This document shows, piece after piece, positions 18,292 to 64,000 of a stretch of DNA of 64,000 nucleotides (the stretch's first letter is position 1; each line of letters begins with the position of its first letter). The stretch lies in IMG/VR virus record IMGVR_UViG_3300020465_001196. One strand, 5' to 3'. The DNA comes from a virus (taxonomy: Duplodnaviria > Caudoviricetes). A model generated the notes under the pieces. The model did not search any database, was not told where the DNA came from, and saw only the letters and a list, made by a program, of their open reading frames with translations. The position numbers and the translations under genes are program-made.

Positions 18292-18894
18292 GTGGATAAA
18301 ATTATTTTAACAGACATAGACGGTGTTGTTTTTGATTGGCATACAGCATTCGTTAAATGGATGGAACTTCAAGGTTATTCGTCAACAGGTGTGATGCATC
18401 ATGATGCAGAAATACACAACGAGTTTGGAATTGCTTTTCAAGAAGGTCTTATTAAAAGAGAAGAGTTCAATTCTTCTATGGCGTGTTCTATTTTAGAACC
18501 ATTACGCGGCGCCGAGATTTGGATTCCTAAACTTAAAGAAGAAGGTTTTAAATTTATTGCTATTACTTCTTTAAGTGATAAACCAATCGCTCAATACTAT
18601 CGTTATTTAAATTTAGAAGATTACTTTGATGTTGAAACTTTTTTAGATGTTAGATGTTTACCTGCAGGTGCAGATAAAACAGAAGCACTAGAAGAATTCA
18701 AAGATAGTGCTTTACTTTACATTGATGATAGAACATTAAATATTGAAATAGCATTAAAACAAAATCTTAATGCTATACTAATGAAACATCCTTATAACAT
18801 TCAATACTCAAACCCAAAAGTTAAATTAGTTAGCACTTGGGAAGATATTTACAATTACATTCAAAAAGTATACAACGTAAAACCAAATAAATAA
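18292..18894 (+). CDS. HAD-superfamily 5'(3')-nucleotidase-like phosphatase
   Basis: ILTDIDGV motif I, ITS motif II, K and YIDD motifs; GTG start with RBS GAGG. Confidence 0.85.
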   Translation: MDKIILTDIDGVVFDWHTAFVKWMELQGYSSTGVMHHDAEIHNEFGIAFQEGLIKREEFNSSMACSILEPLRGAEIWIPKLKEEGFKFIAITSLSDKPIAQYYRYLNLEDYFDVETFLDVRCLPAGADKTEALEEFKDSALLYIDDRTLNIEIALKQNLNAILMKHPYNIQYSNPKVKLVSTWEDIYNYIQKVYNVKPNK

Positions 18895-18898
18895 AAAT

Positions 18899-19507
18899 AT
18901 GTTACACAAACATATTTTTCACGTTCCAGAATTAGATCTTAATGATCAACAAAGATCAATCATTAAAGAAAGATATTATAAGTTCAAAGAAGCCAACCCA
19001 GGTGTTGGCTTCGAGAGCGTCGAGAGAGAAGAAGGTGGAAATAATCCAGGAAACATAGCAACAACAAGTTCAGATGGTGAACCTGTGTTTAAGTATATTA
19101 CAAGTGGTATAGATTTATTAGAAGGTGTATATACTGACAAACAAATACAGCAAATTAAAAGTTTATGTTCTCCATTAGACAATATGAATGCTGATGAGCC
19201 TTTTGATTTTTTAGAAACACATGGCAAAGTATTAAAACATATTGATGATATGCGATATGGTGTTATTACAGTACCTATTATAGAACTAGGACATACATTA
19301 GAGTTTTATGCTAGTGATGATGCTTCTGTAACTGATGATGTTGTTGAAACAATGAAGTATGATAATAAAACTTACATATTCAATCCTAAAATACCGCATG
19401 GAGTAAGAACATCAGATCATATGAGATTGTTTTGGCAAGGTAGCATTTTTAATAAAAACTTTGAACAAATAAAACAAGAATATGAACAAGGTAAATTGTT
19501 TAGATAA
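18899..19507 (+). CDS. Fe(II)/2OG-type oxygenase (DSBH)
   Basis: HID...PHGV...R. Confidence 0.65.
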   Translation: MLHKHIFHVPELDLNDQQRSIIKERYYKFKEANPGVGFESVEREEGGNNPGNIATTSSDGEPVFKYITSGIDLLEGVYTDKQIQQIKSLCSPLDNMNADEPFDFLETHGKVLKHIDDMRYGVITVPIIELGHTLEFYASDDASVTDDVVETMKYDNKTYIFNPKIPHGVRTSDHMRLFWQGSIFNKNFEQIKQEYEQGKLFR

Positions 19508-19515
19508 GTATTAAT

Positions 19516-20310
19516 ATGGCACATTCAAAAATAGGATTATATGGAGACAGTTTTGTTGAAGTATGGCCGGAAGAAAAAAAGAAATATAAAGAAGAAGAAC
19601 ATTATTCATTAACACCGTGGCCAAAAATAGTTGCGGACAAATTTAATTTAGAAATTGTTCATTCAGGTAAAGGTGGAACATCATATTGGGATATTCCATT
19701 ACAACAGTTTTCATTAGATAATGTTCCTGATATATTAATATTTTCTTGGACCTCTAGTGCTAGACTTTATAACAAACAAGGAATCCAATTACATCCTAAC
19801 CCAGGTAAAATTTGGTGGCAAGACGGTGATGTTAAAGATAGTTATGTAGATGCAAGTAAACAATATTTCAAATACATTCATGATACTGAAAAAGAAATAG
19901 CAGAGTACAAGGCTTGTTTATATTGGTTTGATGAAACTATATTAAGTCAAATACCATCAGATAGAAAAATAATTCACTTGTGGTCATTTGGACATGATAA
20001 CACAGACACTAAATTAGGTGGAACATATCATCCTGGCAATTTAACTTATTTGCACAATTGGAAAAATGGTTGCGAAATAAGACCAAGTTGTATGAGTATT
20101 GCTTTGATGGATGGTGCAGGGTTTGATGATGTTGATCCATTTGAAAATCATATGAATACACAAACTAAACATAATCTTATGGCAGACTTTATAATGCATT
20201 CTTTAATTGATACTAATGTTAACGGAGGATATGATAGAGAAGCATTAAATGACTATTCAGAAAACGTAATTAAAAATCACATTTATTCTACAATGCCCCC
20301 TTCTAAATAA
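19516..20310 (+). CDS. SGNH/GDSL-like hydrolase or acyltransferase
   Basis: YGDSF block I, GKGGTS, late HMN. Confidence 0.55.
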   Translation: MAHSKIGLYGDSFVEVWPEEKKKYKEEEHYSLTPWPKIVADKFNLEIVHSGKGGTSYWDIPLQQFSLDNVPDILIFSWTSSARLYNKQGIQLHPNPGKIWWQDGDVKDSYVDASKQYFKYIHDTEKEIAEYKACLYWFDETILSQIPSDRKIIHLWSFGHDNTDTKLGGTYHPGNLTYLHNWKNGCEIRPSCMSIALMDGAGFDDVDPFENHMNTQTKHNLMADFIMHSLIDTNVNGGYDREALNDYSENVIKNHIYSTMPPSK

Positions 20311-20343: not shown

Positions 20344-21072
20344 ATGAAGTGGACAACTTTAATACAAACAAAATACTATAATATAGATAAAACTGAATCA
20401 ATTGATCTTATTATACCTAGAACTGTTAAAGATGATCAACAAATTGCTGGTAGGCAGGTTGATACATTAGGTATATGGTGTTCAGGTGGTGCTGACTCAA
20501 GTGCTTTATTATATTTGCTTTGTAAAGAAATAAAAAAGAATAATTTAAGTATAAAAGTACAACCAATGACAGTTAGAAGACAACGTCCATGGAACCCTGT
20601 AAAAGCAACTCATGTTATTAATAAAATTACTGAAATTTGTGAAGCACAAGAAATTGTGTTACCTCATTTAATTTACTATCCTGACTTAAAAGATGAGCAT
20701 CAAACTGAATGGCAAGAATTTCAAGATAGAAATAAAGAAAATGAAGAAACAGGAGTGTGGGATGTTCTATATGATGGTATAACATCTAACCCACCAGAAG
20801 GGGCAATGCCTTATGACACAGATCAAAAAGATAGACGTGATCCAAATGTAGACCATGAATTGATTACTCCAGATGGATGTTCTCATAGACCATTTTTTAA
20901 TACAAATAAAAAATTTATTGCTGACATTTATAAGCAAGAAAATTTAATGAGTAATTTATTTCCTTTAACTTGGTCATGTGAAGGAACGTTTGAACAAACA
21001 AATGGTTACCTAACACCTTGTGAAAACTGTTGGTGGTGTCATGAAAGATATTGGGCATTCAATAGATATTAA
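20344..21072 (+). CDS. QueC-like PP-loop ATP pyrophosphatase
   Basis: CSGGADS; PF...K..I; TWSC...CENCWWCHER. Confidence 0.8.
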   Translation: MKWTTLIQTKYYNIDKTESIDLIIPRTVKDDQQIAGRQVDTLGIWCSGGADSSALLYLLCKEIKKNNLSIKVQPMTVRRQRPWNPVKATHVINKITEICEAQEIVLPHLIYYPDLKDEHQTEWQEFQDRNKENEETGVWDVLYDGITSNPPEGAMPYDTDQKDRRDPNVDHELITPDGCSHRPFFNTNKKFIADIYKQENLMSNLFPLTWSCEGTFEQTNGYLTPCENCWWCHERYWAFNRY

Positions 21073-22397
21073 TGTCAGAAATTATTGCAATCGATAACGA
21101 TATACAAAATCCTTATTCATTTGAAGTAACATGGGATTTAGGTTTACGATGTAATTTTGATTGTACTTACTGTCCTTCACACAGACATAACAACACATCA
21201 CCTCATGCAAGTTTAGAAACATTAATTAAAACAAGTAAGTTTGTTTTTGATTATAAAAAATTATTACAATCGTATATGACATATTCTCGTAAATGGAATA
21301 TTGGATTTACAGGAGGTGAACCAACTGCCAATCCAAACTTTTTAGCAATGTGTGAATACATACATGATCAAGGTGACCAAGATGTAGTTGTTGATGTAAC
21401 AACAAATGGAGCCATAGGAGAAAAATATTGTAAAAAATTAATTGATAATGTTGATAGTATTACTGTAAGTTATCACAGCGAAGTAGATCAAAAAACAAAA
21501 GATAGAGTTGTAGATAGAATTTATCAATTAAAAGAATCAAATATTAGACATAAAGTTAATTTAATGTTTCATGCTAAAGAAGAATACTTTAATGAATGTA
21601 TTGATTTAGTTGGAAAATTTACTAGAGATAATGTAAAGTTTGTACCAAGAATTATTGGAGAAAGTTATGATAATGACAAGTACAATCATAGATATACTCC
21701 AGAACAACATAAATGGTTTAGAGACTTTTGGGCAATTAGAAACAAAAAAGAAAACAATCAAAAGCAACCTAAAAAGATAGATGAAAATAATGATGCCGAA
21801 TATGAGTATACAGATGATCAAAAGAAAGTACAAGAAAAAAGATTAGCACAAAAGGCAAAAGATATTGCAGTAGGTGAAAGAATTAAAACCAAAGACCTAT
21901 CAAAACCTATAAAAGATTTACTACCAAAAAAACAAGAAGGTAGAAAAAGTTTAGGTAGACCTTGTTGTGGGCAAAGAACATTTTATACATTAACAGAAGA
22001 ACATTATACACAAAATAATAAAAAATTAGATACAGATAAATGGAATAAAAGTGTATTTGCTTGTTCAACAGAATATAAAGATTGGTCTTGTTTAATTAAT
22101 TGGAATTGGTTACATATTGAACAAGAATATGATAATATACTACATCATCAAACTTGTCGTGCAAATTTTGGTGGGGAACGTGGGCCTATTGGTAAGATAT
22201 CTGAAAGTGAAATAGTTTTAGAAAGATTAGAAAAACAATTAGCAACAGGTAAAATGCCTGTAATAACTTGCCCTAATAAAGTTTGCGGTTGTGGTTTATG
22301 TGTACAAAAATCAAAACATCATGATATGACAGAAGCAATGTTTAATAAAGCAGTAAAAGGTTTAACTCCTGTTATTGGAGCAAAACTAAATGGATAA
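21072..22397 (+). CDS. radical SAM enzyme with Cys-rich C-terminus
   Basis: CNFDCTYC, FTGGEP, C-terminal CPNKVCGCGLC. Confidence 0.9.
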   Translation: MSEIIAIDNDIQNPYSFEVTWDLGLRCNFDCTYCPSHRHNNTSPHASLETLIKTSKFVFDYKKLLQSYMTYSRKWNIGFTGGEPTANPNFLAMCEYIHDQGDQDVVVDVTTNGAIGEKYCKKLIDNVDSITVSYHSEVDQKTKDRVVDRIYQLKESNIRHKVNLMFHAKEEYFNECIDLVGKFTRDNVKFVPRIIGESYDNDKYNHRYTPEQHKWFRDFWAIRNKKENNQKQPKKIDENNDAEYEYTDDQKKVQEKRLAQKAKDIAVGERIKTKDLSKPIKDLLPKKQEGRKSLGRPCCGQRTFYTLTEEHYTQNNKKLDTDKWNKSVFACSTEYKDWSCLINWNWLHIEQEYDNILHHQTCRANFGGERGPIGKISESEIVLERLEKQLATGKMPVITCPNKVCGCGLCVQKSKHHDMTEAMFNKAVKGLTPVIGAKLNG

Positions 22398-23676
22398 AGA
22401 AGTAAAAAACTTTAATGAAAAGTATGGTAACACCTTCTGTATAAAACCTTTTTCAGAAGTAGCATCTACACCACTTGGTGCAATTAAGTTGTGCTGTTAC
22501 TCTGGAACAATTGATCCTAAAGAAGAATATTTCAGCAAAGATAAAACTATCAAACAAGTGTTTAACAACAACGCAGGATTGATACAAGCAAGAAAAGATT
22601 TACTTGCTGGTAAAAAAATAAAACAATGTCAAGGTTGTTGGAAAGACGAAGAAGCTGGAAACAAATCAATGAGGATAAATCACACACAATATTACGATGA
22701 GATGGATCCAGAGTTTGTGCAACAAGCAAAACAACAAGGCAAAGCAGAAGTTAAAAGTATAGACATAAAATTTGGTAACAAATGCAATTATGCCTGCGTT
22801 ATGTGTGCACCAGACAACAGCAGTTTGTGGGGAAAAGAAATACAAAAAAATCCAATAGACGTAGATTTATATCAAGGTGGCTTTAATAATTTTGTTCAAT
22901 TAGTTGATTACCCAGAACACAAATATGATGAGCTTTTAGAAATATCTAAAAGTATTAGAAGAGTGAAAAGCACTGGTGGTGAACCAATGTTGCTAGATGG
23001 ATTCAAAGGTTACATAAAAAAAATAGTAGACAAAGGATATGCCAAATACATGAACTTTAAAACTGTAACAAATGGTACAGTTGATTGTTCTGAATTACTA
23101 CCTTACATGAATGAGTTCAAAAGGTTTGAAATGGATTGGAGTGTTGATGGCACCGGCGAAGTTTATAATTATATTAGGTGGCCTGGCAACTTTAATAGGA
23201 TGAAAAGAATACACGAAAAATTAGCATCAGAAATTATCAACAACAATTATAAAAATATTGAAATTACTATGCACCCAACTATACAAGTTTTTAATCTACA
23301 TAATATTCCTGAAATAATACAATATGCAAAAGATCTACAGGTTGTTAATTTTGTAGATTTTGGATACATTTTTGATGAGCCAAGTTATTTAAACACTGGT
23401 GTATTTCCTGATAAAATGCTAGAAGATATTATTCAAGAAAACAATAAAAAAGTTGGTAAAATAGAAACATCAAACAATTTTAATCATTCATATGATAATC
23501 TTGTGTCGACTGTACGTAGAGATCAAAAATTATTTAATAAAAAGTACAACAAAAAAGAATTGTTTGATAAAACTAAAAGAATAGCAAAATGGTTTGATAA
23601 AAGTAGGAAACTAGATATTCACAATCACATATCAACATATAAAGAGCTTGAAAATTACTATCTACACCTACAATAA
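22390..23676 (+). CDS. N-terminal twitch-domain radical SAM enzyme
   Basis: FCIKPF...CC...CQGCW then CNYACVMC, TGGEP. Confidence 0.9.
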   Translation: MDKEVKNFNEKYGNTFCIKPFSEVASTPLGAIKLCCYSGTIDPKEEYFSKDKTIKQVFNNNAGLIQARKDLLAGKKIKQCQGCWKDEEAGNKSMRINHTQYYDEMDPEFVQQAKQQGKAEVKSIDIKFGNKCNYACVMCAPDNSSLWGKEIQKNPIDVDLYQGGFNNFVQLVDYPEHKYDELLEISKSIRRVKSTGGEPMLLDGFKGYIKKIVDKGYAKYMNFKTVTNGTVDCSELLPYMNEFKRFEMDWSVDGTGEVYNYIRWPGNFNRMKRIHEKLASEIINNNYKNIEITMHPTIQVFNLHNIPEIIQYAKDLQVVNFVDFGYIFDEPSYLNTGVFPDKMLEDIIQENNKKVGKIETSNNFNHSYDNLVSTVRRDQKLFNKKYNKKELFDKTKRIAKWFDKSRKLDIHNHISTYKELENYYLHLQ

Positions 23677-23973: not shown

Positions 23974-24047
23974 TGGTAGCACTACCGGGAATTGAACCTG
24001 GGTCTTAACCTCCTGAAAGTTACGTTCTACCATTGAACTATAGTGCA
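23974..24047 (-). tRNA. atypical tRNA, anticodon CAG (Leu codon) on a short-variable-arm body, CCA encoded
   Basis: TGCACTA TA GTTC-AATGGTA-GAAC G TAACT-TTCAGGA-GGTTA AGAC CCAGG-TTCAATT-CCCGG TAGTGCT A CCA. Confidence 0.8.
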
Positions 24048-27910: not shown

Positions 27911-28081
27911 TATATTATCTCCCTATATAAGCTATATTCAAATTTAGTTTAATTTCGGGAGGGTCTGCCTCATTGTTATTCTATTATCCACTTTCGTTCG
28001 GAGTGGTTAGTAATATTTATAATGTAATGATGAAAATTATAGTTGTATATTAACATATAACTTAATATTTAATTCAAAAGA

Positions 28082-52161: not shown

Positions 52162-52426
52162 CTGCCTCTACGTGTATTCCTTTTACCCAATGGTACCATT
52201 CTTTTGCTTTTGCTTTTGCCTCGATGTGTAATGGATCTGTTCTCCAAGCATCAACATCTTCTTTTGTTTTCCATGAACTAATTGTAATTTCAACATCATC
52301 TTTTTCTTCTGACGTAATATTTATAAAGCCAGGTAAGGTCTCAGCTTTTTCTCTAACTCTTTTACTATAGTCATAATATTCTTCGTTAAAATTTTTTATC
52401 TTTGCAATAAAGAAAACTTTAATCAT
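52151..52426 (-). CDS. antibiotic biosynthesis monooxygenase (ABM) domain protein
   Basis: PGFI...ITISSW...AWRTDPLH..AK...W. Confidence 0.8.
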   Translation of the reverse strand: MIKVFFIAKIKNFNEEYYDYSKRVREKAETLPGFINITSEEKDDVEITISSWKTKEDVDAWRTDPLHIEAKAKAKEWYHWVKGIHVEAVDE

Positions 52427-55669: not shown

Positions 55670-56880
55670 AACTCCTTAAACTCCGGATACACTTCTAAAA
55701 AATTTGTTTCATTTAATCTATCCATAGTTTCAACATATTCTTTAGTTGATCGTGGCAATGTTTCATTGTTAATATTAGTATTATTCATATAATCTAATAC
55801 ATAGTTTGACCATTTAACTATTTTGGCCAAACGATTCTCCTTAATGTTTACTAACTTATCTATTTTATTATAAACTCTTTTTGTTATAATGTCTTTCATT
55901 TTCTTTGGAATATATTGAATATTTAAGGCCTCTGGATATTGAACCAAACTACAATGGAAAGGACAATCCAACGAAACGTAATAATCAATTATCTCATCAA
56001 ATCTGGAAATATTATATAGAGAAACTGTACAAGTAGTTGTTAAATTAAACTGATCGGCCGATAATTCAGATTTTAATGTTCTAATATTATTTTCAATTGC
56101 TTCTAAATTACTTCCTGTTCTTAAATAACCATGAATCTTTTTATCACCATCTATACTAACTCTGCAATTTACTTTTTTAAAGTTTGCCCAAAGATCACTT
56201 ACGTGTTTATCTTTTAATATAATATTATTTAGATTAGTATTATACTCTAATGTAATGTTATGTGCATATGGTAACAACCTTTCCAATGCATCATAATGCT
56301 GTGGTTGTATTAAAGGTTCGCCACCTGCTATAACTATTTCTTCTACTCTTGGTCCTATGTCATTTACTACTTGATTAAATGTTTCTATAGGTAATTTTGC
56401 AATACCTCTCCATGTACTTGTTTCTGTTAATTGATATTTGTCAAATAAACGTTTTACATCATCATGCTTGTTTACTGCTACTGCCCAAGTTGAACTATAT
56501 ATTGATGAGCAATGTCTACATCTTAAATCGCATACATTACCAAAACGCAATTCAATTGATTTTACATTCATTGGTAGTGTGCCATCAACAACCTCTTCCA
56601 TCACTTGTGGAATATATGAAGCATAGTCTTCATTACATTGTTGCCTAGTTGATGTTATGTTTGCTTTTTCCATATCCCAACAGCTCTTACAACCTTCATG
56701 CTCAATATTGTTCATTAAATTTTTACGTATATTTTTATAGTTTTCATTGTTCCAAATTTCTTTAAGAGTCTTATCACCATAATGTCCTAGTGAATCGTGG
56801 TTTCGCCAACAAGCACTAACAAAACCTTTTGGTTTTAAATTCATATGTATGAACGGCATTATACAAAATGTTTTACTCAT
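55660..56880 (-). CDS. N-terminal twitch-domain radical SAM enzyme
   Basis: FCIMPF...ACW...CKSCW; CDLRCRHC; AGGEP. Confidence 0.9.
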   Translation of the reverse strand: MSKTFCIMPFIHMNLKPKGFVSACWRNHDSLGHYGDKTLKEIWNNENYKNIRKNLMNNIEHEGCKSCWDMEKANITSTRQQCNEDYASYIPQVMEEVVDGTLPMNVKSIELRFGNVCDLRCRHCSSIYSSTWAVAVNKHDDVKRLFDKYQLTETSTWRGIAKLPIETFNQVVNDIGPRVEEIVIAGGEPLIQPQHYDALERLLPYAHNITLEYNTNLNNIILKDKHVSDLWANFKKVNCRVSIDGDKKIHGYLRTGSNLEAIENNIRTLKSELSADQFNLTTTCTVSLYNISRFDEIIDYYVSLDCPFHCSLVQYPEALNIQYIPKKMKDIITKRVYNKIDKLVNIKENRLAKIVKWSNYVLDYMNNTNINNETLPRSTKEYVETMDRLNETNFLEVYPEFKEFWQ

Positions 56881-58243
56881 TAATAACCTCAGTTAACTTT
56901 GGAAATACTTCTTGCCAATTTTCTTTTCTTATTTTATCAAAAAATTCTGCTTTAACTTTAAAAAGGTCAGTACAATCTGGACCTTTACCTTTAAGTGTTT
57001 TTTCTAAAGCGGTATACCACTTATTAATTGCGTAATCTCTAACAAACGATTTGTCGCTATATCCAATGGATTCTAATTCTTTATCTACTTCTTCTCTTTG
57101 TATTTTGAGATCATCTATCATTTTAAGTTTTACTTTATTATTTAGATTTGATAAACATAGATAATCTGGACCAGAAACGTGAGTTACTTGCAGAAAATCA
57201 CCATACTGATGCTCTTCATTTCCATCTATGGTATATCCAGTTATATATTTGTTTACTAACTTTTTATCAAAATGAGTATACACCCAAACTATAAATTTTT
57301 TAAATGATAAAACATTAAATACACTTATAGTATGGCTTATAGCAACGAAAATGTTTTTATAATCTAACGATAATTTTTCCCAGTGTTTAGAAACTTTTAA
57401 TACAGTTTTCCAATTTGATTTCTTTCGTATAAATTCTGCTTCTTGTTCTATACCATCTAAACTTAAATTGATATATACTCTTTTAAATTTTGGAAGTATT
57501 GACCAATATTTTTCTTTTGGAAAAAAACTACAATTAGTAAACACATCTAATACTATGTTTTTTGCAAGATCCCACTTAACTAAATTATCTAAAAATCCAA
57601 GAAATGCATCAGTTAAAAATGGTTCACCACCTGTAACTTTAACTTCAAGTAAATGCTTAACAGTATCATATTCCATATCTTTAATATATTCATTTGTTGT
57701 TATGTTTCTCTTATGATCAGTATACCAATTATGCTTGGGATGTGGCTCACCAAAAAAATGTTGTTGTGCTTCTGTATTATCTATTAAATCTTCATCCCAA
57801 CTTGTTGATAACCCTGGACCACAAGTTCTACATTTTAAATTACAAAATCTACCAGTTTCTATTTCTAAATATTCAAGCCTAGGTTTAGCAATATTTCCCC
57901 ACTCTCCTTTTGGACCTCTTACTCCTTGAGCCCATTTAGGATTTTGTATTGCGGCAATGGCATTTTCTCTCATGCTTCTATTTCCATTAGCTTCTTGCCA
58001 ATAGCATTTAGTACACCCAGCAACTTTCTCACCACTTAACATTTTTCTTCGTACATTTGACCAAGACTCATTAAAGTCAGATACGTTGTTTATGCTAATC
58101 ATTCCTTCGTCATCTAAATCTTTATCAAGATATGCTCGATTGTCCCAACGACAACAAGGCTGTATCCATTCTCCTTTTGGCTCAATAATTGCTCCTTTAA
58201 AAGGAAATGGGCAAAATGTTTTATTCTTTTTTAAATCAATCAT
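56873..58243 (-). CDS. N-terminal twitch-domain radical SAM enzyme
   Basis: FCPFPF...PCC...CTKCY; CNLKCRTC; TGGEP. Confidence 0.9.
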   Translation of the reverse strand: MIDLKKNKTFCPFPFKGAIIEPKGEWIQPCCRWDNRAYLDKDLDDEGMISINNVSDFNESWSNVRRKMLSGEKVAGCTKCYWQEANGNRSMRENAIAAIQNPKWAQGVRGPKGEWGNIAKPRLEYLEIETGRFCNLKCRTCGPGLSTSWDEDLIDNTEAQQHFFGEPHPKHNWYTDHKRNITTNEYIKDMEYDTVKHLLEVKVTGGEPFLTDAFLGFLDNLVKWDLAKNIVLDVFTNCSFFPKEKYWSILPKFKRVYINLSLDGIEQEAEFIRKKSNWKTVLKVSKHWEKLSLDYKNIFVAISHTISVFNVLSFKKFIVWVYTHFDKKLVNKYITGYTIDGNEEHQYGDFLQVTHVSGPDYLCLSNLNNKVKLKMIDDLKIQREEVDKELESIGYSDKSFVRDYAINKWYTALEKTLKGKGPDCTDLFKVKAEFFDKIRKENWQEVFPKLTEVINE

Positions 58244-58372: not shown

Positions 58373-59188
58373 ATGTTAGTAAGAAAAAAATATCAATTAC
58401 CAACAATGTGGAAATTTCAAAATAAGAAATTTGACATTGAAAGATTAAGAGAAGAAGCATTAAAGTTGGCCAACAACTATGGTGATGTTATGGAAACTAA
58501 CAAAGCCTTATGCTCAAACAATCACGAGTTAGTTATGAGTGTATACAAACACTTTAAGCAAATTAACCTTACAGAATTTGATCCAAGTGCGGCATCACCT
58601 ACTGTAGAAAGTTGTGAAGTAATGGGCAAGACTGCAGGAACTGGTGACGAGTCAATTAGTAAAATTGCAAAATATAAATTAAAATCTAGACTTGGCGAAG
58701 GACTTGCACCTGGGCTTAATGAACATAATTATAATACTCCAACTGAAGAATATACAGGTTCATACTTTCAAGAAGTTGTTGAATCGTTTAAAGCAGATGC
58801 AATTAGAGTTAGACTTGTAAGATTAGATCCAGGTAAAACACTTACACCACATATTGATTACGATCCAACTTATGCTGTAAGAGTTATTGTACCTATTTTT
58901 GCAGAAGAAGAAGCAACAAATTACTTTTGGCGTAAAGGTAAAGAAGAGTCATATCATTTAAAAGCTGATGGCTCTGCATACTTTTTAAATATTGGCTTTA
59001 GGCATACAGTAGTAAATTCAGGTTCTACACCTAGAATTAGTTTAATGTTTAGTTTAAAAAATCAATCAGACTTACAAGAAATAATTGATACTAACTGGAA
59101 CGAAACTAATAACATGGGTGACCTACGTATACAAAAAGATTACAAACAACATAAGGCTCAAGCAGATGCCCAACCAGTGGCTGTTTAA
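58373..59188 (+). CDS. Asp/Asn beta-hydroxylase-like oxygenase
   Basis: PHIDYD...RVIVPI...RHTVVN...RISLM. Confidence 0.8.
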   Translation: MLVRKKYQLPTMWKFQNKKFDIERLREEALKLANNYGDVMETNKALCSNNHELVMSVYKHFKQINLTEFDPSAASPTVESCEVMGKTAGTGDESISKIAKYKLKSRLGEGLAPGLNEHNYNTPTEEYTGSYFQEVVESFKADAIRVRLVRLDPGKTLTPHIDYDPTYAVRVIVPIFAEEEATNYFWRKGKEESYHLKADGSAYFLNIGFRHTVVNSGSTPRISLMFSLKNQSDLQEIIDTNWNETNNMGDLRIQKDYKQHKAQADAQPVAV

Positions 59189-59492
59189 AACAGAAGTAAA
59201 AGAATCAACTATACACGGACAAGGAAGATTTGCGTTAGAAGATATTCCTATTGGAAGAAATGTGCTTACTTTAGATGGTGCTATCGTACCAAAAGAACAA
59301 GCACCTAAAAAATTTCCTGTTAGTTTAACTCACAATATGGATTGTGAAGATACTTACATCAATCACTCAGACGATTCAAATTTAGCATATTTAGGTGGTA
59401 CAAGTTTTGTATCATGTAAAAATATAAAGGCAGGCGATGAACTAACTATGGATTATAGAGAGTTCGCTGGAGATCGTAAATTTTTATTCTAA
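59166..59492 (+). CDS. stand-alone SET domain methyltransferase
   Basis: STIHGQGRFA.EDI..G, YINHSDDSN, IKAGDELTMDY; start refined to 59166. Confidence 0.88.
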   Translation: MPNQWLFKTEVKESTIHGQGRFALEDIPIGRNVLTLDGAIVPKEQAPKKFPVSLTHNMDCEDTYINHSDDSNLAYLGGTSFVSCKNIKAGDELTMDYREFAGDRKFLF

Positions 59493-59558: not shown

Positions 59559-59777
59559 CTATTTTAGTAATACTATTTTTGATTTACTATTTTTTATTTT
59601 AATCTTACTTTCAGGAAGTATAGCACCTGTTGTAATATAGTGTAATGTTAAAGGACTATTAGGTTGATAACTTGAATATTCGGAACTAAGATGCTTTGGT
59701 ATTTTTTTACGTTTTTTAGTAGTCTTTTTGCGTTTTGACTTCTTTTTTTGATAGTGCATCAAAACAATATTTATCAT
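59559..59777 (-). CDS. basic hypothetical protein
   Basis: Lys-rich, coupled to upstream oxygenase. Confidence 0.5.
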   Translation of the reverse strand: MINIVLMHYQKKKSKRKKTTKKRKKIPKHLSSEYSSYQPNSPLTLHYITTGAILPESKIKIKNSKSKIVLLK

Positions 59778-60460
59778 TATTGATTAAATTTTGCTTTCCA
59801 ATCCATATTAGCAAACGGCCATCCTGTTATAACAACACGGCATCCTGGCTTGCCATTTCTTACTGGGTAAACGTAATGGGCTGATCCAACCCGCATTAGC
59901 ACACACGTATTTCTTTTTGGCTTTATTGCTAATGGTCCTACCAAATAAGGTTCTTGTTTTGAATCAGCATAAAGTTTTGTTTTGAACTCTTGCCAATTTT
60001 TTCTTTCTGATGGATTAGTTTGGAAATGATCTTCTAACATATACTCATTTGGAAAAACTAATTCTCCACCATCTTCAGTTGTTAAGTAATTAATAAACAC
60101 AAAGTCTCCATATATATCTTTGCGTTCTGTGTGTACGTTGTATACACTATCTGGATTAAATGTTTTTGTTGTAAATTGTAATACGTTCTTTTCGTTTACT
60201 TCTGTTATTGGTTTGTATACTTTTGTAAGTATTTCATTAAGTTTCTCAATAACTGCTAAAACAACTTCTTTATCTTTGTGTATATCATATTTTACGTGAT
60301 TATAGTTGTAATGTGATTTGCTTATAATATGTTTTTGCTCATTAGCATCTAATTCTTTTGTTTCTGAACTATAAATTTTTTCTAATGTTTGATCAACTAG
60401 ATCTTCATTAATAAAATTTTCTGTATACCATATTTCATCTTTGACTAGTTCCTGCCACAT
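59777..60460 (-). CDS. 2OG-Fe(II) oxygenase (prolyl-hydroxylase-like), HxE variant
   Basis: VHTE, DGGELVFP, AHYV, RVVITGW. Confidence 0.75.
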   Translation of the reverse strand: MWQELVKDEIWYTENFINEDLVDQTLEKIYSSETKELDANEQKHIISKSHYNYNHVKYDIHKDKEVVLAVIEKLNEILTKVYKPITEVNEKNVLQFTTKTFNPDSVYNVHTERKDIYGDFVFINYLTTEDGGELVFPNEYMLEDHFQTNPSERKNWQEFKTKLYADSKQEPYLVGPLAIKPKRNTCVLMRVGSAHYVYPVRNGKPGCRVVITGWPFANMDWKAKFNQ

Positions 60461-61032
60461 TAATCGTAAAACCTCCTTACCCTTCCATGAGTAAATCCTT
60501 GTACTAATACTTCAACTGCTTCATCATATGATAATCCTCTATGCTGTAAGTAAAACAGATGTTCTTCATCTAATGCTCCTATAGTACAACCATGCGTACA
60601 AATAGTATCATCATTATGTATTTCTAATTCTGGTTTTGAAAATGCATCTGATTGATTATCTAATAAAATATTTTTGTTTAACATATGACTTTCACAACCA
60701 CTTATGTGTTTTGGTATTATTATTTTACCTTCAAATGATGTATTACTCTTTTTGTTAATAAATCTAAAATCTTGATTACATTTTGATTTTTTACCTTTAT
60801 GAACAACTATTGTTTTTATATTTGTATCAAATCGTTTATTTTTAAAAAATCCAAACATTTCGCATACTGCATCTTCTTGTAGTTCAACGTTGATCGTTGT
60901 TTTAGTTCCTTTAGATGTTTTAAAAAATATACAAGCCTTGGCTCCACGTTTTACATCTATGCTTATAGCATCTTCTTCACTTAAATTAATTTTACAGTCT
61001 AATGCTTTATCAACTACGTAATGGTTATCCAT
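60460..61032 (-). CDS. sufD: SufD-like Fe-S assembly protein, C-terminal half only
   Basis: FEGKIII, NKNILL, SKPELEIHNDD..CTHGCTIG.LDEEHLFYL..RGL...EA...LVQGF; 190 aa. Confidence 0.85.
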   Translation of the reverse strand: MDNHYVVDKALDCKINLSEEDAISIDVKRGAKACIFFKTSKGTKTTINVELQEDAVCEMFGFFKNKRFDTNIKTIVVHKGKKSKCNQDFRFINKKSNTSFEGKIIIPKHISGCESHMLNKNILLDNQSDAFSKPELEIHNDDTICTHGCTIGALDEEHLFYLQHRGLSYDEAVEVLVQGFTHGRVRRFYD

Positions 61033-61708
61033 TTGTAAATCCTTGTTTATCTATTCTATCTAATAGTGTAACATCACCTGTTTCATCTATTTTTTTATTT
61101 TTAATAATATGAACAAACGTTGGATTTAAATTTCTTAATATTTTTGTATTGTGGCTAATAACTAACCAACCATAATTACTTTTGTATTCATTAACAATTT
61201 TTGTTACCATTCGTAATGCATCTACATCTAAACCCGTATCAACTTCATCAAGTATAACTATCTTTGGATTTGCTTGTAATAATTGTAGTAGTTCATTCTT
61301 CTTACGTTCACCTCCAGAAGCACCTTCATTAAATTCTCTACTTGCCCAATCATTTTGTAAGTTTAAACTTTCAATATCTTTTTTATATTTTTGTACTTCA
61401 GTTGAATAATGTTGCACTAATTTATAATTTGTTATTCCAGGAATACTAGGTGGAGATTGAAAACTCATAAACAATCCTGCTTTTGCTCTTTCACTAACTT
61501 CCATTTCTAATATGTCTTCACCACTTAATGTTACTACTCCTTTGGCTTCATAATCATTTTTACCAACAAGAGCATTCGCTAGTGTACTTTTACCACAACC
61601 ATTAGGACCTATAATTGCATGAATTTCACCTTTGTTTATCGTAAGGTTAAGTCCATCAATAATTTTTTTATCTTGTATTTGTACTTCTAAGTTTTTTATT
61701 TCTAACAT
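61025..61708 (-). CDS. sufC: Fe-S assembly ATPase SufC
   Basis: GEIHAIIGPNGCGKST, ERAKAGLFMSFQ.P, SGGE, LDEVDTGLDVDAL. Confidence 0.93.
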   Translation of the reverse strand: MLEIKNLEVQIQDKKIIDGLNLTINKGEIHAIIGPNGCGKSTLANALVGKNDYEAKGVVTLSGEDILEMEVSERAKAGLFMSFQSPPSIPGITNYKLVQHYSTEVQKYKKDIESLNLQNDWASREFNEGASGGERKKNELLQLLQANPKIVILDEVDTGLDVDALRMVTKIVNEYKSNYGWLVISHNTKILRNLNPTFVHIIKNKKIDETGDVTLLDRIDKQGFTNG

Positions 61709-61718
61709 TTTCTTTCAC

Positions 61719-62483
61719 TCAATGACATTGTTCAATTGGTTTTTTATATTCTTCAGAATCAAAATAATGATTAAAATTACAATTTTGATTTAAACTTTCT
61801 ATTAAATCTTTTGTAGCATATGGCCATCCTGTAACAACCTGCCTTGAATCTTCTTTAACTTCGCCGTTTAACGGTGTAACATAATGAGCTGACCCTATTG
61901 CAAATACTACACATTTATTATACACTGGTTTAATCGTAATGTCATCCAAATATCTTATTGGATATCCTTTTGATTCTACTAATTGTATATTTTCTGGCCA
62001 ACGTTCTTTTTGATCAGGATGTTTTTCTAAAAACTTTTCTATTCCTTGCTTACTTGGAAATATTAATTCACCGCCATCTTCTGTAGATAAAAAATGCATA
62101 AATGCATATAGGCCATATTTGTTAATTGGTTCTGCGTGTAAATCATACCAACCACGTTTTGTAAAACTTTTTGTAAACAACTGTAGGCCATCTAAATCAG
62201 TTGTTGGAACTTTTGTACCTGTAATTGGTTCTAATAGTTCATTTACTTTATTCATGTATATGTCAATATACTTTTGATTTTTATGTATGTCTGTTCTATG
62301 AACTGTATAATTGTATGTTGTAGCATTTACTCCAGACTTTCTAAAGTTTGGTAATATTGCTTCTCCAGGCTGTAATTCTGTTTTACCTGCTTGTAGCATA
62401 TCTTCTTTAATTTGCTTAATTGTTGCATCATCAAGAAAATTATCAAATTCCCATATTTCATTTTTAACAAGTTCTTTCCACAT
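61719..62483 (-). CDS. 2OG-Fe(II) oxygenase, HxE variant, paralogue of 59777-60460
   Basis: Shared MW.ELVK.EIW N-terminus; LHAE, GGELIFP, AHYV, RQVVTGW. Confidence 0.75.
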   Translation of the reverse strand: MWKELVKNEIWEFDNFLDDATIKQIKEDMLQAGKTELQPGEAILPNFRKSGVNATTYNYTVHRTDIHKNQKYIDIYMNKVNELLEPITGTKVPTTDLDGLQLFTKSFTKRGWYDLHAEPINKYGLYAFMHFLSTEDGGELIFPSKQGIEKFLEKHPDQKERWPENIQLVESKGYPIRYLDDITIKPVYNKCVVFAIGSAHYVTPLNGEVKEDSRQVVTGWPYATKDLIESLNQNCNFNHYFDSEEYKKPIEQCH

Positions 62484-64000
62484 TATCTTTCACTCCCTAC
62501 AGCAATTCTATCTGTTGGTTTTATACGAGCATCTGTACCATACATACTCATATCAAATTCTTTTTTCCATTGTGCTATATCATATTTAACCAAGTTTTCT
62601 GGAAACACTTTTGACATATCATTTAAAAATTTATCCTGGTTGTGCCAAAACTGATACACTTCGTCTGCACGTAAACATCTTGAAAAATACAAATACGTTG
62701 CTAAATCTTTTACTTCTGTTCTTGGTTCATCTTTAAAAATATTTCTAATAATTGTTCTATTCTTTTCTACTAGTGATGTTATAAAAGGCATTTTATCTAA
62801 ATTTTTATAAAACCATTTTGCTTGTACTCCAATGTCATGCTCTGTGTCATATAAATTTTTCATAGTATGGCTCAATGCTCTTGAGTTATGAAAGTTATGA
62901 TAGAACCACCAATAGTCAAACATACGAACAATTTCATCTTCATCATATGAAAAACATCTATGCATAATTTCTATTTCTTCAAACTCATAAGTACTACGTT
63001 CATCTCTGTACTCAGGATGATTATGCAACTGCTTATATCCTAGTCCTGAAAAAGAATATGGAAATGCAAGTATTTTAGATTTAACTTTATGTTCTTTTTG
63101 AAACTTTTCTGTGTATAACTCTGTATTAGGTACTAAATTTAAAAAGTAAGTTCGCATAAAGTCAATACCAATTTCGTAATCTCTATTTAGACTATATAAC
63201 CAACTGTCTGCTGTTTCGCCTGGTAATGCAATAATCATTTCACTTGTTACAGGTAATCCTTTTGATTTAAAACTGTCTACTAATGGTGTAAGTTTATCAT
63301 TGTTAATATTATCTCTGTTAATAACTTTTAGTGTTTCCTTTGCGTGTGTTTGGAAACTTACTTTAAGGTTACGTTGATCTGCATCTAAATTATTATGTAT
63401 AATATCTATAATCTCTGGTAACCATTTACTACCATTCTTTGCAAGTCCACTGTAAGATATTTTAGGATTATTACCTGTTGCTTCTTTGTTTGCTTTCATT
63501 TTCTTAACAACATCTAAATCTCTAGGCAACATACCAAAGTTAGCATCAAGTATTTCTACTTCTGCTATGTTTGTATGTTTATATATAAAGTCTAACTGTT
63601 CATTTACAGGATCCATGTCAAACTTTGTAACTTTTGATCTTGCTTGTCCACCCCAATCACAAAATGCACATTTAAAAGGACAACCGCGATTAGTTTCAAA
63701 TGATGCTTTAACTCTTTTTTCTTCAGCAAGTATAGAATCAAATACTCCGTCTAAATAAGGTGTTGGCATTTCATGAGTTTCAATTTGATATAATTTACGT
63801 CCTACTTCTACATTGTTCCATCCTAATCCAAAACTGCCATCATGTGTACTCATAGGAGCATCTATATTTTTTAAAAACTTACTAACTAATTTCTCTCCTG
63901 GGCCAACCCAAAATATATCTATATAAGGATGTTCTTTTGCAAACTGCTCTGCAAGTTTAGGATCTTCAGGCACATTAGGACCGCCATACATTGTTATACC
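62483..64000 (-). CDS. cobalamin-dependent-type radical SAM enzyme, 5' end outside window
   Basis: Frame open to window edge; GGPNV B12-domain motif, GPGE, FETNRGCPFKCAFC, DANFG, IIALPGET. Confidence 0.88.
   Translation of the reverse strand, partial: GITMYGGPNVPEDPKLAEQFAKEHPYIDIFWVGPGEKLVSKFLKNIDAPMSTHDGSFGLGWNNVEVGRKLYQIETHEMPTPYLDGVFDSILAEEKRVKASFETNRGCPFKCAFCDWGGQARSKVTKFDMDPVNEQLDFIYKHTNIAEVEILDANFGMLPRDLDVVKKMKANKEATGNNPKISYSGLAKNGSKWLPEIIDIIHNNLDADQRNLKVSFQTHAKETLKVINRDNINNDKLTPLVDSFKSKGLPVTSEMIIALPGETADSWLYSLNRDYEIGIDFMRTYFLNLVPNTELYTEKFQKEHKVKSKILAFPYSFSGLGYKQLHNHPEYRDERSTYEFEEIEIMHRCFSYDEDEIVRMFDYWWFYHNFHNSRALSHTMKNLYDTEHDIGVQAKWFYKNLDKMPFITSLVEKNRTIIRNIFKDEPRTEVKDLATYLYFSRCLRADEVYQFWHNQDKFLNDMSKVFPENLVKYDIAQWKKEFDMSMYGTDARIKPTDRIAVGSER

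Follow-up and report, generated by a model that had tools for sequence, protein, structure and literature searches.

A radical SAM-rich accessory region of a marine T4-like jumbo phage and its possible role in sugar-based decoration

Gene content of the accessory region

The window is a 64,000-nucleotide stretch of DNA from an uncultured marine T4-like jumbo phage of ~330 kb. The 46-kb stretch at positions 18,292–64,000 makes up the phage's main accessory (hyperplastic) region, a mosaic in which some ten transcription units are separated by fibre genes, tRNAs and conserved small phage genes. ORFs overlap or abut from 58243 down to 46174 (−) and, in a second run, from 64000 down to 59559 (−). 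In a complete relative of 328 kb (G001), 22 radical SAM genes are spread genome-wide, 10 of them in the region matching the 46-kb stretch. With this mosaic layout and spread, the region is not one natural-product-like cluster; an earlier note had proposed a dedicated biosynthetic system on that scale. The non-enzymatic landmarks and their neighbours are as follows.

18250–18894 (+): HAD-type phosphatase-like protein, 214 aa (Pfam HAD_2 23.6 bits, barely below cut-off; G001 ortholog 87%)
23974–24047 (−): tRNA-Leu(CAG) (ARAGORN and Rfam)
24494–27910 (−): fibre/decoration protein, 1138 aa, Thr/Gly/Ala/Ser-rich (PHROG fibre and head-decoration families)
28409–29761 (−): fibre with Mtd_N domain, 450 aa (PF18454 50 bits)
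35387–35619 (−): tRNA-Arg(GCG), tRNA-Gln(TTG) and tRNA-Met(CAT) (tRNA and Rfam predictions)
35621–36109: unknown protein
36700–37011: HAD/PNKP-like protein
37175–37432: DsbA-like protein

The last three genes form a conserved block around an oxygenase gene (36122–36700); the block with the oxygenase, DsbA-like and HAD/PNKP-like genes is 89–97% conserved in G001 and 76–87% in G003. The 1138-aa fibre protein contains no collagen repeats, and TATAAATA at 28014–28021 was noted for its gene.

Profile searches identified ten radical SAM genes in the 46 kb.

21072–22397 (+): radical SAM type a, without N-terminal twitch (PF04055 41.7 bits)
22390–23676 (+): N-terminal-twitch radical SAM 1 (NF033640 268 bits)
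32153–33313 (−): N-terminal-twitch radical SAM 2 (NF033640 190 bits)
37909–39222 (−): N-terminal-twitch radical SAM 3 (NF033640 300 bits)
46174–47505 (−): N-terminal-twitch radical SAM 4 (NF033640 320 bits)
47514–48959 (−): N-terminal-twitch radical SAM 5 (NF033640 259 bits)
54503–55669 (−): radical SAM type b (PF04055 53.8 bits)
55660–56880 (−): N-terminal-twitch radical SAM 6 (NF033640 320 bits)
56873–58243 (−): N-terminal-twitch radical SAM 7 (NF033640 255 bits)
62483–64000 (−): B12-binding radical SAM (KedN5-like), 5′ end cut by the window edge (NF033712 135 bits)

The count agrees with that of the earlier note: nine genes pass the Pfam PF04055 cut-off, and the tenth (47514–48959) falls below it yet is recovered by NF033640. 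Seven of the ten are paralogs of NF033640 (N-terminal twitch, N-twitch), a catalogued but uncharacterised family, and types a and b are paralogs of each other (25%). The B12 enzyme matches PF04055 over 62483–63991 (−), and its orthologs in G001 and G002 have 593–598 residues. The N-terminus of the NF033640 profile matches the twitch domain of BtrN, an aminocyclitol dehydrogenase, and the pair at 55660–58243 shows a SPASM match at the N-terminus (predicted model, pLDDT 93). The array exceeds what chance would give: among 50,697 deposited phage records, only 6 contain so much as a distant homolog of one N-twitch gene.

The HxD/E...H oxygenases plausibly number 11, with about half of them firmly supported.

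18899–19507 (+): small HxD...H oxygenase-like protein (paralogy, motif, weak hhalign)
31593–32156 (+): HxD...H oxygenase-like protein (paralogy, motif, weak hhalign)
36122–36700 (−): Asp_Arg_Hydrox-type oxygenase 1 (PF05118 39 bits)
42294–42875 (−): HxD...H oxygenase-like protein (paralogy, motif, weak hhalign)
43191–43985 (−): HxD...H protein, paralog of 44702–45367 (paralogy, motif)
44702–45367 (−): 2OG-oxygenase-like protein (Atlas look-alikes)
53315–53992 (−): Asp_Arg_Hydrox-type oxygenase 2 (sub-threshold match)
53973–54506 (−): Asp_Arg_Hydrox-type oxygenase 3 (Pfam match)
58373–59188 (+): Asp_Arg_Hydrox-type oxygenase 4 (Pfam match)
59777–60460 (−): P4H-like oxygenase (Pfam 2OG-FeII_Oxy_3)
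61719–62483 (−): paralogous oxygenase (35% paralog of 59777–60460)

Five of them (36122, 53315, 53973, 58373 and 59777) lie at or near Pfam level. The proteins at 18899, 31593 and 42294 form one paralog family, whose conserved HxD...H...R falls on the Asp_Arg_Hydrox ligands with weak statistics (hhalign P 0.007, probability 5%). For the 43191/44702 pair, hhalign was not significant; its language-model (Atlas) look-alikes are P4H/Asp_Arg_Hydrox clusters (0.95–0.97 for 44702–45367).

The remaining tailoring genes are as follows.

19516–20310 (+): SGNH-like protein (N-terminal GDSF motif only; G001 ortholog 68%)
20344–21072 (+): PP-loop/QueC-like protein 1 (sub-threshold QueC and PP-loop; paralog of 29947–30741)
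29947–30741 (+): PP-loop/QueC-like protein 2 (QueC 24 bits, C-terminal 55 residues only)
33313–34689 (−): GT-B-fold glycosyltransferase-like protein, invariant E351-K352 (AF2 model, pLDDT 86)
39432–40118 (−): SAM methyltransferase-like protein (sub-threshold Methyltransf_31/25)
43957–44718 (−): membrane di-iron desaturase-like protein (PF00487, FA_desaturase, 54.6 bits; HRYLSH, HRKHH, HNTHH)
48925–50142 (−): NDP-sugar 6-dehydrogenase (UDPG_MGDP_dh N-terminal and central domains; TIGR03026 137 bits)
50139–51635 (−): NodU/TobZ-type O-carbamoyltransferase (Carbam_trans_C 186 bits, Carbam_trans_N 144 bits)
51613–52161 (−): short SDR (weak Pfam match)
52151–52426 (−): ABM/Dabb-like protein (weak Pfam match)
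52419–53312 (−): aminotransferase-like protein (Atlas look-alikes only, carrying Aminotran_1_2)
59085–59492 (+): SET-domain protein, start uncertain

The carbamoyltransferase, NDP-sugar dehydrogenase, desaturase, SET protein, two fibres and four tRNAs of the earlier note were confirmed. Its two QueC-like proteins, SDR, ABM, SAM methyltransferase, two HADs and SGNH stay putative, on sub-threshold matches or motifs (a Pfam search with the SGNH-like protein gave no match), as does its PLP enzyme, whose support ends with the Atlas look-alikes. The SDR, ABM/Dabb-like and aminotransferase-like ORFs overlap. The GT-like protein was confirmed at the level of the predicted fold, where all 28 significant PDB matches are GT-B enzymes (TM 0.35–0.5).

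Fe–S assembly genes and electron supply

Four genes for Fe–S assembly and electron supply, named in the earlier note, were recovered by profile searches.

42884–43216 (−): Grx4-type monothiol glutaredoxin (TIGR00365 137 bits, above cut-off; CGFS motif)
45364–46122 (−): Fpr-type ferredoxin-NADP reductase, FNR (FAD_binding_6 and NAD_binding_1; best NCBIfam PRK10926, 132 bits)
60460–61032 (−): half-size SufD (SufD′), 190 aa (SufBD core)
61025–61708 (−): SufC (253 bits, above cut-off)

The B12 radical SAM, oxygenase, SufC, SufD′ and oxygenase genes overlap or abut, with start/stop overlaps of 1–8 nt in the run at 59777–62483. In G001, Suf and tailoring genes show translational coupling, and one abutting run reads desaturase-SufB-SDR-SDR-x-B12 radical SAM-oxygenase-SufC-SufD′-oxygenase. 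Both G001 and G002 encode SufS, SufE, SufB, SufC and SufD′, and G001 also has an A-type carrier. All five phage contigs with a short SufD also hold radical SAM genes. For this clade, the coupling and the SUF sets support the self-provisioning of Fe–S clusters claimed in the earlier note. It is not universal: no SufB/D was found in 15 MCP-related phage fragments holding as many as 10 radical SAM genes apiece, and the Suf–radical SAM coupling is clade-specific. A weaker form of the idea has been in print since 2017, in a paper that linked the viral Fe–S assembly genes of marine T4-like phages with numerous radical SAM genes (PMC5332604).

Loading of the many [4Fe-4S] clusters would fall to SufC, SufD′ and Grx4, with SufB, SufS, SufE and the A-type carrier encoded elsewhere in the genome. 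Electrons from Fpr would reach the radical SAM enzymes, the neighbouring membrane desaturase, or both; FNR and the desaturase share one conserved block, and FNR may serve the desaturase instead of the radical SAM enzymes.

Conservation, gene swapping and upstream motifs

Orthologs were compared over a 100-kb stretch of G001 (40,001–140,000). Backbone genes are 70–97% identical, and the N-twitch genes that occupy matching slots share 34–58% identity or have been replaced. The slot of N-twitch 1 holds a gene only 34% identical, N-twitch 3 has a 58% ortholog, and the position of N-twitch 4 and 5 holds a single gene (36–41%). In that stretch, no close ortholog was found for N-twitch 2, and no homolog for the oxygenases at 53315–53992 and 31593–32156 or the methyltransferase-like protein. 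The N-twitch genes are thus exchanged among close relatives, in the pattern of a specificity-determining locus. Type b is the most conserved toolkit member (95% in G001, 56–65% in Bdellovibrionota loci).

The gene set, itself confirmed, is found again in many other aquatic phages and in predatory bacteria. Other phage contigs carry arrays of 10–12 radical SAM genes with Asp_Arg_Hydrox, adjoining a fibre gene of the Mtd_N type. In Bdellovibrionota and other bacteria, the neighbours of N-twitch genes include radical SAM types a and b, Asp_Arg_Hydrox, desaturase, SDR, QueC-like, aminotransferase-like, GT-B-like and carbamoyltransferase homologs. The desaturase family adjoins radical SAM arrays in both phage and Bdellovibrionota loci.

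Most units are preceded by ATAAATA, which is depleted three to four times; half of its copies lie 5–30 nt upstream of island genes, and copies are kept at orthologous sites in the relative. The motif lies 5 nt before the ATG of 18899–19507 (+), 31593–32156 (+) and 39432–40118 (−), and, conserved in G001, 23 nt upstream of the QueC-like gene at 20344–21072 and 30 nt upstream of the genes at 58373–59492. In G001, it precedes portal, large terminase, adaptor and virion protein genes, which suggests late expression of the tailoring units. Because ATAAATA also precedes an EF-G-like gene and is spread over the whole genome, late timing is not proven by the motif. Sigma70-like promoters were recognised by eye before FNR (−35/−10, conserved in G001) and before the 58243 operon. 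Exact, patchy metatranscriptome contigs cover FNR, four radical SAM genes, one oxygenase and SufD′; these RNA-library contigs may be DNA carry-over.

Candidate substrates of the toolkit

Several genes point to a sugar substrate. The NDP-sugar dehydrogenase and the carbamoyltransferase share an operon, and the closest solved structures of the latter (GdmN, NovN and TobZ) are all of enzymes whose substrates are sugars or natural products. The likeness of the twitch domain to that of the aminocyclitol dehydrogenase BtrN also fits a sugar substrate. A bacterial homolog of the GT-B-like protein sits between GT2/GT9 and UDP-sugar dehydrogenase genes. G001 contains six GT-B-like and 14 N-twitch genes, and four of the six cluster with two N-twitch genes, SufE and an SGNH-like gene. 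NeuB and CMP-sugar synthetase adjoin the array in a Bdellovibrionales locus, as do carbamoyltransferase and UDP-sugar dehydrogenase the N-twitch gene in a Bacteroidetes locus.

Other observations weaken the case for sugars. The N-twitch fold is equally close to radical SAM enzymes that act on peptides, lipids, nucleotides and sugars, and canonical GT2 and priming transferases were found in neither G001 nor G002. Among 71 non-radical SAM neighbours at ten bacterial loci, only three are GT1/GT2 and two are ABC-2 permeases; nitroreductase (three) and PhyH (two) are as frequent. Proteins are the classical targets of Asp_Arg_Hydrox, P4H-like and SET domains. The desaturase, together with PhyH and LpxO-like hydroxylases, gives a hint of lipid-directed chemistry. 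DNA hypermodification, an alternative in the earlier note, is disfavoured.

Tailoring of a sugar-based decoration late in infection, probably on virion proteins, is the best reading at a probability of roughly 40%; the glycan coat of the earlier note gains moderate support. The toolkit would make and diversify an unusual decoration. Oxidation of a nucleotide sugar would yield a uronic acid, which would then be aminated, amidated, carbamoylated and hydroxylated, and radical chemistry would reshape or C-methylate the sugar. In the late phase of infection, GT-B-type enzymes would attach the modified sugar to an acceptor made by the phage, with fibre or capsid-decoration proteins as the most likely targets.

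Gene content and layout of the region

The window is AT-rich (~30–37% G+C), and its upstream genes match phage families (endolysin, spanin-like protein and conserved unknowns). A near-identity search of both window halves against 50,697 phage records found no close relative, and its sole matches were a 170-bp segment of Pelagibacter phage HTVC008M, in a small conserved gene, and a tRNA. A search with the half-size SufD of the window (SufD') retrieved eight IMG/VR loci, the best of which, G001, is a complete phage genome of 328,149 bp with terminal repeats. Synteny between G001 and the window extends over at least 53 kb, with proteins 70–97% identical, and G001 was used as a proxy for the whole genome of the window. 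It encodes a T4-type major capsid protein (MCP) whose relatives occur on more than 598 IMG/VR contigs at 68–82% identity; the CheckV completeness of these contigs corresponds to genomes of ~350–390 kb. The radical SAM (rSAM) profile PF04055 matches 22 proteins in G001 and 23 in G002, a 243-kb relative contig that is 55% complete. Just 10 of the G001 matches lie in the part orthologous to the 46-kb region examined here, and the putative island is thus one of several clusters. Three further loci (L122, L126 and L131), filed under Chloroflexota, Rickettsiales and Acidimicrobiaceae metagenome-assembled genomes (MAGs), have GC contents of 0.28–0.35, eight to 11 rSAM genes each and a type b rSAM protein 60–81% identical to that of the phage. 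They resemble phage contigs that were assigned to marine MAGs during binning.

Pfam and NCBIfam scans of ~57 ORFs at 18250–64000 confirmed most of the enzymes that an earlier note had listed for this region. The features referred to below are as follows.

21072–22397, plus strand: rSAM gene, type a
33313–34689: gene for a GT-B-like protein
34817–35152, plus strand: gene for a 111-residue acidic protein
37665–37856, minus strand: 63-residue ORF
54503–55669, minus strand: rSAM gene, type b
58243 to 46174: run 1, with overlapping stops and starts, in the order N-twitch 7, N-twitch 6, rSAM type b, two oxygenases, aminotransferase-like protein, ABM, SDR, carbamoyltransferase, sugar dehydrogenase, N-twitch 5 and N-twitch 4
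59085–59492, plus strand: SET ORF
60460–61032: SufD'
62483–64000, minus strand: B12 rSAM gene
64000 to 59559: run 2, with overlapping stops and starts, in the order B12 rSAM, oxygenase, SufC, SufD' and oxygenase

The 10 rSAM genes comprise seven members of the N-terminal twitch (N-twitch) family NF033640, types a and b as a separate pair and one B12-binding KedN5-like gene that is cut by the window edge. The count of 11 oxygenases with an HxD/E...H pattern was reproduced, and the assignment is firm for the first six only (four Asp_Arg_Hydrox paralogs and two P4H-like HxE paralogs). The others form a group of three (18899, 31593 and 42294) and a pair (43191 and 44702), and hhalign of this pair against the Asp_Arg_Hydrox paralogs gave no significance. 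SufC, the SufD-like protein, a CGFS Grx4-type glutaredoxin, an Fpr-type ferredoxin-NADP reductase (FNR), an NDP-sugar dehydrogenase and a NodU/TobZ-type carbamoyltransferase are solid, as are a three-His-box membrane desaturase, the SET protein, two fibre genes and four tRNAs. The protein previously called GT-like is assigned to the GT-B class at the fold level only, through a model (pLDDT 86) that matches GtfC, SdgB, GtfA, T4 beta-glucosyltransferase and an alpha-1,3-fucosyltransferase with TM scores of 0.35–0.5. The proposed PLP enzyme is suggested by language-model look-alikes, and the SGNH, SDR, ABM, methyltransferase, HAD and QueC-like assignments are weak. PDB sequence searches with rSAM types a and b and QueC-like protein 1 yielded nothing useful, and an Rfam scan of the window returned the four tRNAs alone and no riboswitch.

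Three small genes are noted separately. The SET ORF as listed starts with TTG and shares 104 nt with the upstream oxygenase gene; its true start probably lies farther downstream because the G001 ortholog has 115 residues. The protein encoded at 34817–35152 is extremely rich in Asp and Glu in its C-terminal two thirds, has a 41%-identical homolog in G001 and could be a DNA mimic or an anti-restriction-type protein. The ORF at 37665–37856 contains a lipoprotein-type signal, MKTILSIFALAFILTSC, and is preceded by a sigma70-like promoter identified by eye; its product could be a small lipoprotein made early, of the type that mediates superinfection exclusion.

The region does not form the single cluster on a natural-product scale that had been envisaged. 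The stretch is a mosaic in which the translationally coupled runs are separated by fibre genes, tRNAs, a conserved block with a DsbA-like gene and small genes that are also found in other phages outside an rSAM context. The small ORFs at 37466–41838 were considered as RiPP precursors and rejected, being conserved T4-like genes of phages that lack an rSAM context. Upstream of the region, 1.7 kb without long ORFs (12980–14700) coincides with a strand switch and with the minimum of the cumulative GC skew. It contains iteron-like repeats with CTTTGAAC units at ~13763–13876, four TGTTG...GCAACA palindromes at 13631–13731 and three iteron-like copies of TTACAGCGGGGTCT with a 21-nt spacing at 14246–14301, and may serve as a replication origin or as a regulatory hub.

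N-twitch enzymes and Fe–S supply

The seven N-twitch proteins score 190–320 bits against the whole NF033640 profile (curated cut-off of 170), and the other three rSAM proteins score below the cut-off. Their alignment contains invariant cysteines at C22, C40, C78 and C81, followed by the CxxxCxxC motif at C145, C149 and C152. The twitch (auxiliary-cluster) domain is thus placed ahead of the CxxxCxxC core, and profile residues 5–70 align with the twitch domain at the C terminus of BtrN (E = 3e-5). A fold search with an N-twitch model retrieved peptide-, lipid-, nucleotide- and sugar-acting enzymes alike; these are generic rSAM matches that point to no particular substrate. Literature searches on NF033640, a computationally defined family, found no characterised member. 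In this clade the family is expanded, with 14 members in the G001 genome, and its genes are swapped between close relatives. N-twitch proteins in corresponding slots of the window and G001 are 34%, 58%, 36–41% and 45–49% identical, and just one reaches 92%. Whole cassettes also differ, and G001 carries an extra QueC-like gene between the SDR and carbamoyltransferase genes. A conserved backbone with swapped N-twitch slots is the pattern of a specificity-determining locus with fast turnover.

The Fe–S assembly genes of the window are partly of equivalog grade. SufC scores 252.7 bits against TIGR01978 (cut-off of 212.8), and the Grx4 protein, which has the CGFS active site, scores 137.3 bits against TIGR00365 (cut-off of 117.1). 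The 190-residue SufD' covers only positions 92–264 of TIGR01981 and scores 128.7 bits against a cut-off of 222, short of a full-length SufD. SufB, SufS and SufE are absent from the window, and all three are present in both G001 and G002 (SufS at 412–440 bits); an A-type carrier is found in G001. In G001, abutting ORFs encode, in order, the desaturase, SufB (488 residues), two SDRs, an unknown protein, the B12 rSAM protein, an oxygenase, SufC, SufD' and an oxygenase, and by synteny SufB probably lies just beyond the window edge. Judged from gene content, the SUF route of the clade is complete, with SufD at half size, and its genes sit inside tailoring operons, which supports the earlier proposal that the enzymes come with their own Fe–S supply. 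The proposal has limits. SufB and SufD are absent from 15 MCP-related phage fragments of 42–175 kb with up to 10 rSAM genes, three of which have an A-type carrier, and the FNR, which lies in a conserved FNR–oxygenase–desaturase block, may serve the desaturase.

The phage genes resemble bacterial SUF, in which a SufBC2D scaffold is served by a SufSE donor, in their equivalog-level SufC and SufB/D core and in the SufB, SufS and SufE of the relatives. They differ in that SufD is reduced to the C-terminal beta-helix part and in that the genes are scattered among tailoring genes rather than arranged as a sufABCDSE operon. No comparable Suf set was found among the cultured phages of the collection searched. 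Microcystis phage MaAM05 (L017, MW495066.1) was examined as a cultured Suf phage and rejected, as its genes form a canonical bacterial sufBCDS–iscU run beside panBC; this end of the record (259–274 kb), with panB, panC, pxpA and sufBCDS–iscU, looks like bacterial sequence. In an Oligoflexia MAG (L137), a bacterial sufB–sufC–sufD set lies ~2 kb from an N-twitch rSAM gene, an arrangement that may have arisen by chance or may be a cellular counterpart of the phage layout.

Fe–S supply and rSAM expansion in marine T4-like phages are known in outline, and the N-twitch family is catalogued. Marine T4-like genomes related to Pelagibacter phage HTVC008M carry Fe–S assembly genes, a glutaredoxin and up to 12 rSAM genes, which has been read as viral coordination of Fe–S supply and use (Nishimura et al. 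2017, mSphere, PMC5332604). The Fe–S assembly genes of that study are A-type carriers and IscU only, and its genomes reach at most 183 kb, whereas the clade described here has SufS, SufE, SufB, SufC, a half-size SufD, an A-type carrier and Grx4, with 22–23 rSAM genes on contigs of 243–328 kb and Suf genes translationally coupled to tailoring genes. New here are the complete SUF set in tailoring operons, the count of 22 rSAM genes reached by one complete genome of 328 kb, the slot-wise swapping of N-twitch genes between close relatives and the exclusion of known DNA-modification routes in G001 and G002.

Putative late-type promoter motifs and expression

Late genes of T4-type phages are preceded by a TATAAATA-like −10 element. 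The heptamer ATAAATA occurs 18 times in the window against ~61 copies expected from base composition, and 102 times in G001 against ~356, and is thus three to four times rarer than composition predicts; more than half of the copies in both sequences lie just upstream of gene starts. Nine copies are located 5–30 nt upstream of gene starts in the region, in four cases at exactly 5 nt from the ATG, and the motif is kept at the orthologous positions of G001. In G001 it also precedes the genes for the portal, the large terminase, a head–tail adaptor and virion proteins, as well as an EF-G-like gene. The preferred spacings are 5 and 8 nt, which would give leaderless or near-leaderless mRNAs, and ~19–24 nt, which leaves room for a Shine–Dalgarno site. 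On this distribution, ATAAATA is read as a putative T4-late-like promoter element. Sigma70-like promoters were identified by eye before the FNR gene and the large operon.

Marine metagenomes of at least nine studies contain DNA nearly identical to the window. Two metatranscriptome assemblies of a single sample include exact short contigs over the FNR gene, four rSAM genes, an oxygenase gene and the SufD' gene; coverage is patchy compared with the even coverage of the DNA run, and DNA carry-over is possible.

Candidate substrates and acceptors

The conserved operon core consists of the NDP-sugar dehydrogenase, the carbamoyltransferase, the SDR and the aminotransferase-like protein, and the nearest solved relatives of the carbamoyltransferase are GdmN, NovN and TobZ (E = 1e-41 to 1e-54). 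The GT-B-like family is co-expanded and co-clustered with the N-twitch genes in G001, where four of its six genes are grouped with SufE, an SGNH-like gene and two N-twitch genes. Full-length homologs from cellular organisms come mainly from Bdellovibrionota, with type b rSAM proteins 56–65% identical to that of the phage, and the recurrence of the same partner families there indicates that the toolkit is a unit. A bacterial GT-B-like homolog lies between GT2/GT9 genes and a UDP-sugar dehydrogenase gene on a 936-kb Bdellovibrionia contig, a Bdellovibrionales array adjoins NeuB and a CMP-sugar synthetase, and a Bacteroidetes N-twitch gene adjoins a carbamoyltransferase and a UDP-sugar dehydrogenase. 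Pfam scans of the other genes of a Bdellovibrionia array gave mostly no match. Several observations temper the sugar reading. The classical targets of many of the oxygenase and SET families are proteins, the N-twitch fold is equally close to enzymes acting on peptides, lipids, nucleotides and sugars, GT2 and Bac_transf are missing from G001 and G002, and among 71 non-rSAM neighbours at 10 bacterial loci GT1/GT2 genes (three) and ABC-2 permeases (two) are no commoner than nitroreductase (three) and PhyH (two) genes.

A virion acceptor is suggested because late-type motifs are present, fibre genes lie inside the region and rSAM arrays adjoin Mtd_N fibre genes in unrelated contigs. The GT-B-fold gene, with an ATAAATA motif upstream, is 3.5 kb from the fibre genes. 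The region is tentatively interpreted as encoding the late-expressed tailoring of a sugar-based decoration, probably on virion proteins, with a probability of about 0.4. Directly after the MCP gene, G001 encodes an 803-residue protein (208437–210848) with 43% similarity to an Mtd_N fibre; this protein could be a head fibre or a decoration protein, and a candidate acceptor of modification.

Virus-encoded virion glycans occur in chloroviruses and mimivirus, and virion glycosylation was reportedly described by Freeman et al. in 2023 for mycobacteriophage clusters F and O. The phage region, like such systems, has transferase-like genes near structural genes, and these would be expressed from late-type promoters. 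To our knowledge, the known virion-glycosylation systems use ordinary glycosyltransferase and methyltransferase genes, and none has rSAM arrays or an Fe–S supply of its own.

The same enzymes could act elsewhere than on a virion glycan. Remodelling of the host envelope, by altering nucleotide-sugar pools, lipid-linked surface glycans, LPS or membrane lipids of the infected cell, would serve superinfection exclusion, keep progeny off debris or adapt the membrane, and similar roles have been proposed for the LPS and desaturase genes of cyanophages. It accords with the conserved block of membrane desaturase and adjacent FNR, the sigma70-like promoters, the bacterial GT-B-like homolog beside GT2 and GT9 (an LPS-core heptosyltransferase family), the ABC-2 permeases and LPG_synthase_TM near bacterial arrays and the Asp_Arg_Hydrox family, which also includes lipid hydroxylases such as LpxO. 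It is nevertheless doubtful, given that G001 and G002 contain neither a priming transferase (Bac_transf) nor GT2, that the enzymes of the region are nearly all soluble, that a late-type motif precedes most units and that arrays repeatedly adjoin fibre genes. Direct modification of virion or host proteins without a sugar, in which rSAM/twitch enzymes, oxygenases, SET protein and methyltransferase would introduce RiPP- or proteusin-like cross-links, epimerisation, C-methylation or hydroxylation, is unlikely. The closest solved folds do include sactipeptide, streptide and SkfB maturases and anSME, Asp_Arg_Hydrox, P4H-like and SET proteins are protein-modifying families, a B12 rSAM protein of the C-methyltransferase type is present and fibres lie within the region. 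However, in the coupled operons, a general Pfam scan and inspection of the ORFs revealed neither a small ORF resembling a precursor gene nor an RRE domain, a leader peptidase or an exporter; the fibres, searched for collagen-like repeats as a target of the P4H-like oxygenases, contain none; and the operon core pairs an NDP-sugar dehydrogenase with a sugar-type carbamoyltransferase. The mosaic layout, the gain and loss of cassettes relative to G001 and the genome-wide dispersal of rSAM genes would also fit a hyperplastic collection of separately retained auxiliary genes (desaturase with FNR, Fe–S assembly, oxygenases and rSAM), whereas extensive translational coupling and the co-travel of the same families in unrelated phages and Bdellovibrionota make such an assemblage improbable. 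Equally improbable is its companion version, a diffusible aminoglycoside- or nucleoside-like small molecule. BtrN, TobZ, BlsE and DesII-like enzymes belong to small-molecule pathways, with a BtrN-matching twitch here and BlsE and DesII among the fold matches, and a smaller set in cyanophages has been read as "antibiotic synthesis genes" (PMC12801897). Compared with aminoglycoside and nucleoside antibiotic tailoring (BtrN, TobZ/NovN/GdmN, BlsE and DesII), the twitch is N-terminal rather than C-terminal, the context is viral, and no scaffold-forming enzyme, exporter or resistance gene was seen here.

Hypermodification of DNA or tRNA, for instance to 5-carbamoyloxymethylcytosine, glycosylated hydroxymethyl-pyrimidines or 7-deazaguanines, had been put forward as an alternative on the side of nucleic acids. 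It would account for the QueC-like PP-loop proteins with the rSAM enzymes, the nearby tRNA genes and the T4 beta-glucosyltransferase among the GT-B fold matches. Yang et al. (2021, eLife, PMC8670742) showed that 5hmC in DNA is carbamoylated by a NodU-type enzyme of a phage, whose Carbam_trans_N and Carbam_trans_C architecture is the same as here. In that study, DNA-modifying carbamoyltransferases co-occur with a thymidylate-synthase-type hydroxymethylase, and also with dCMP deaminase or MazG, and carbamoyltransferases beside glycosyltransferases were on unmodified contigs. The hydroxymethylase partner is missing from G001, and the neighbours here are NDP-sugar dehydrogenase, SDR and rSAM genes. 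G001 and G002 have ThyX only, with no PF00303 (ThyA-family) match over the cut-off, and searches of both found no C5 DNA methyltransferase and no TGT/DpdA (PF01702); a Tet/JBP search of both gave nothing but, having no positive control, counts for little. The QueC matches of the window reach 19–24 bits over the C-terminal 55 residues only, and a full-length QueC is absent. Nucleic acid hypermodification is very improbable.

If the product is a virion glycan, as in the preferred reading of late tailoring of a sugar-based decoration, virus-encoded glycosylation would extend to T4-like phages and would include new radical sugar chemistry. A bolder form of this reading, in which we place little confidence, would make the marine jumbo phage clade a self-sufficient radical-enzyme factory, with the first complete virus-encoded SUF and at least 14 cassette-swappable N-twitch enzymes. 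These would install strain-specific, unprecedented modifications on a fibre or capsid-decoration glycan, creating a variable coat with an influence on how the phage adsorbs, which hosts it infects or whether it escapes host recognition, through a pathway shared horizontally with predatory Bdellovibrionota. Few uncharacterised enzyme sets in the genomes of aquatic phages appear to be larger than such rSAM arrays, one member of which has over 1500 relatives among metagenomic proteins. The cassette-swapped N-twitch genes are a natural panel for working out NF033640 reactions. A complete viral SUF pathway bears on the iron and sulfur economy of iron-poor surface oceans and on how oxygen-sensitive enzymes stay working in aerobic hosts.
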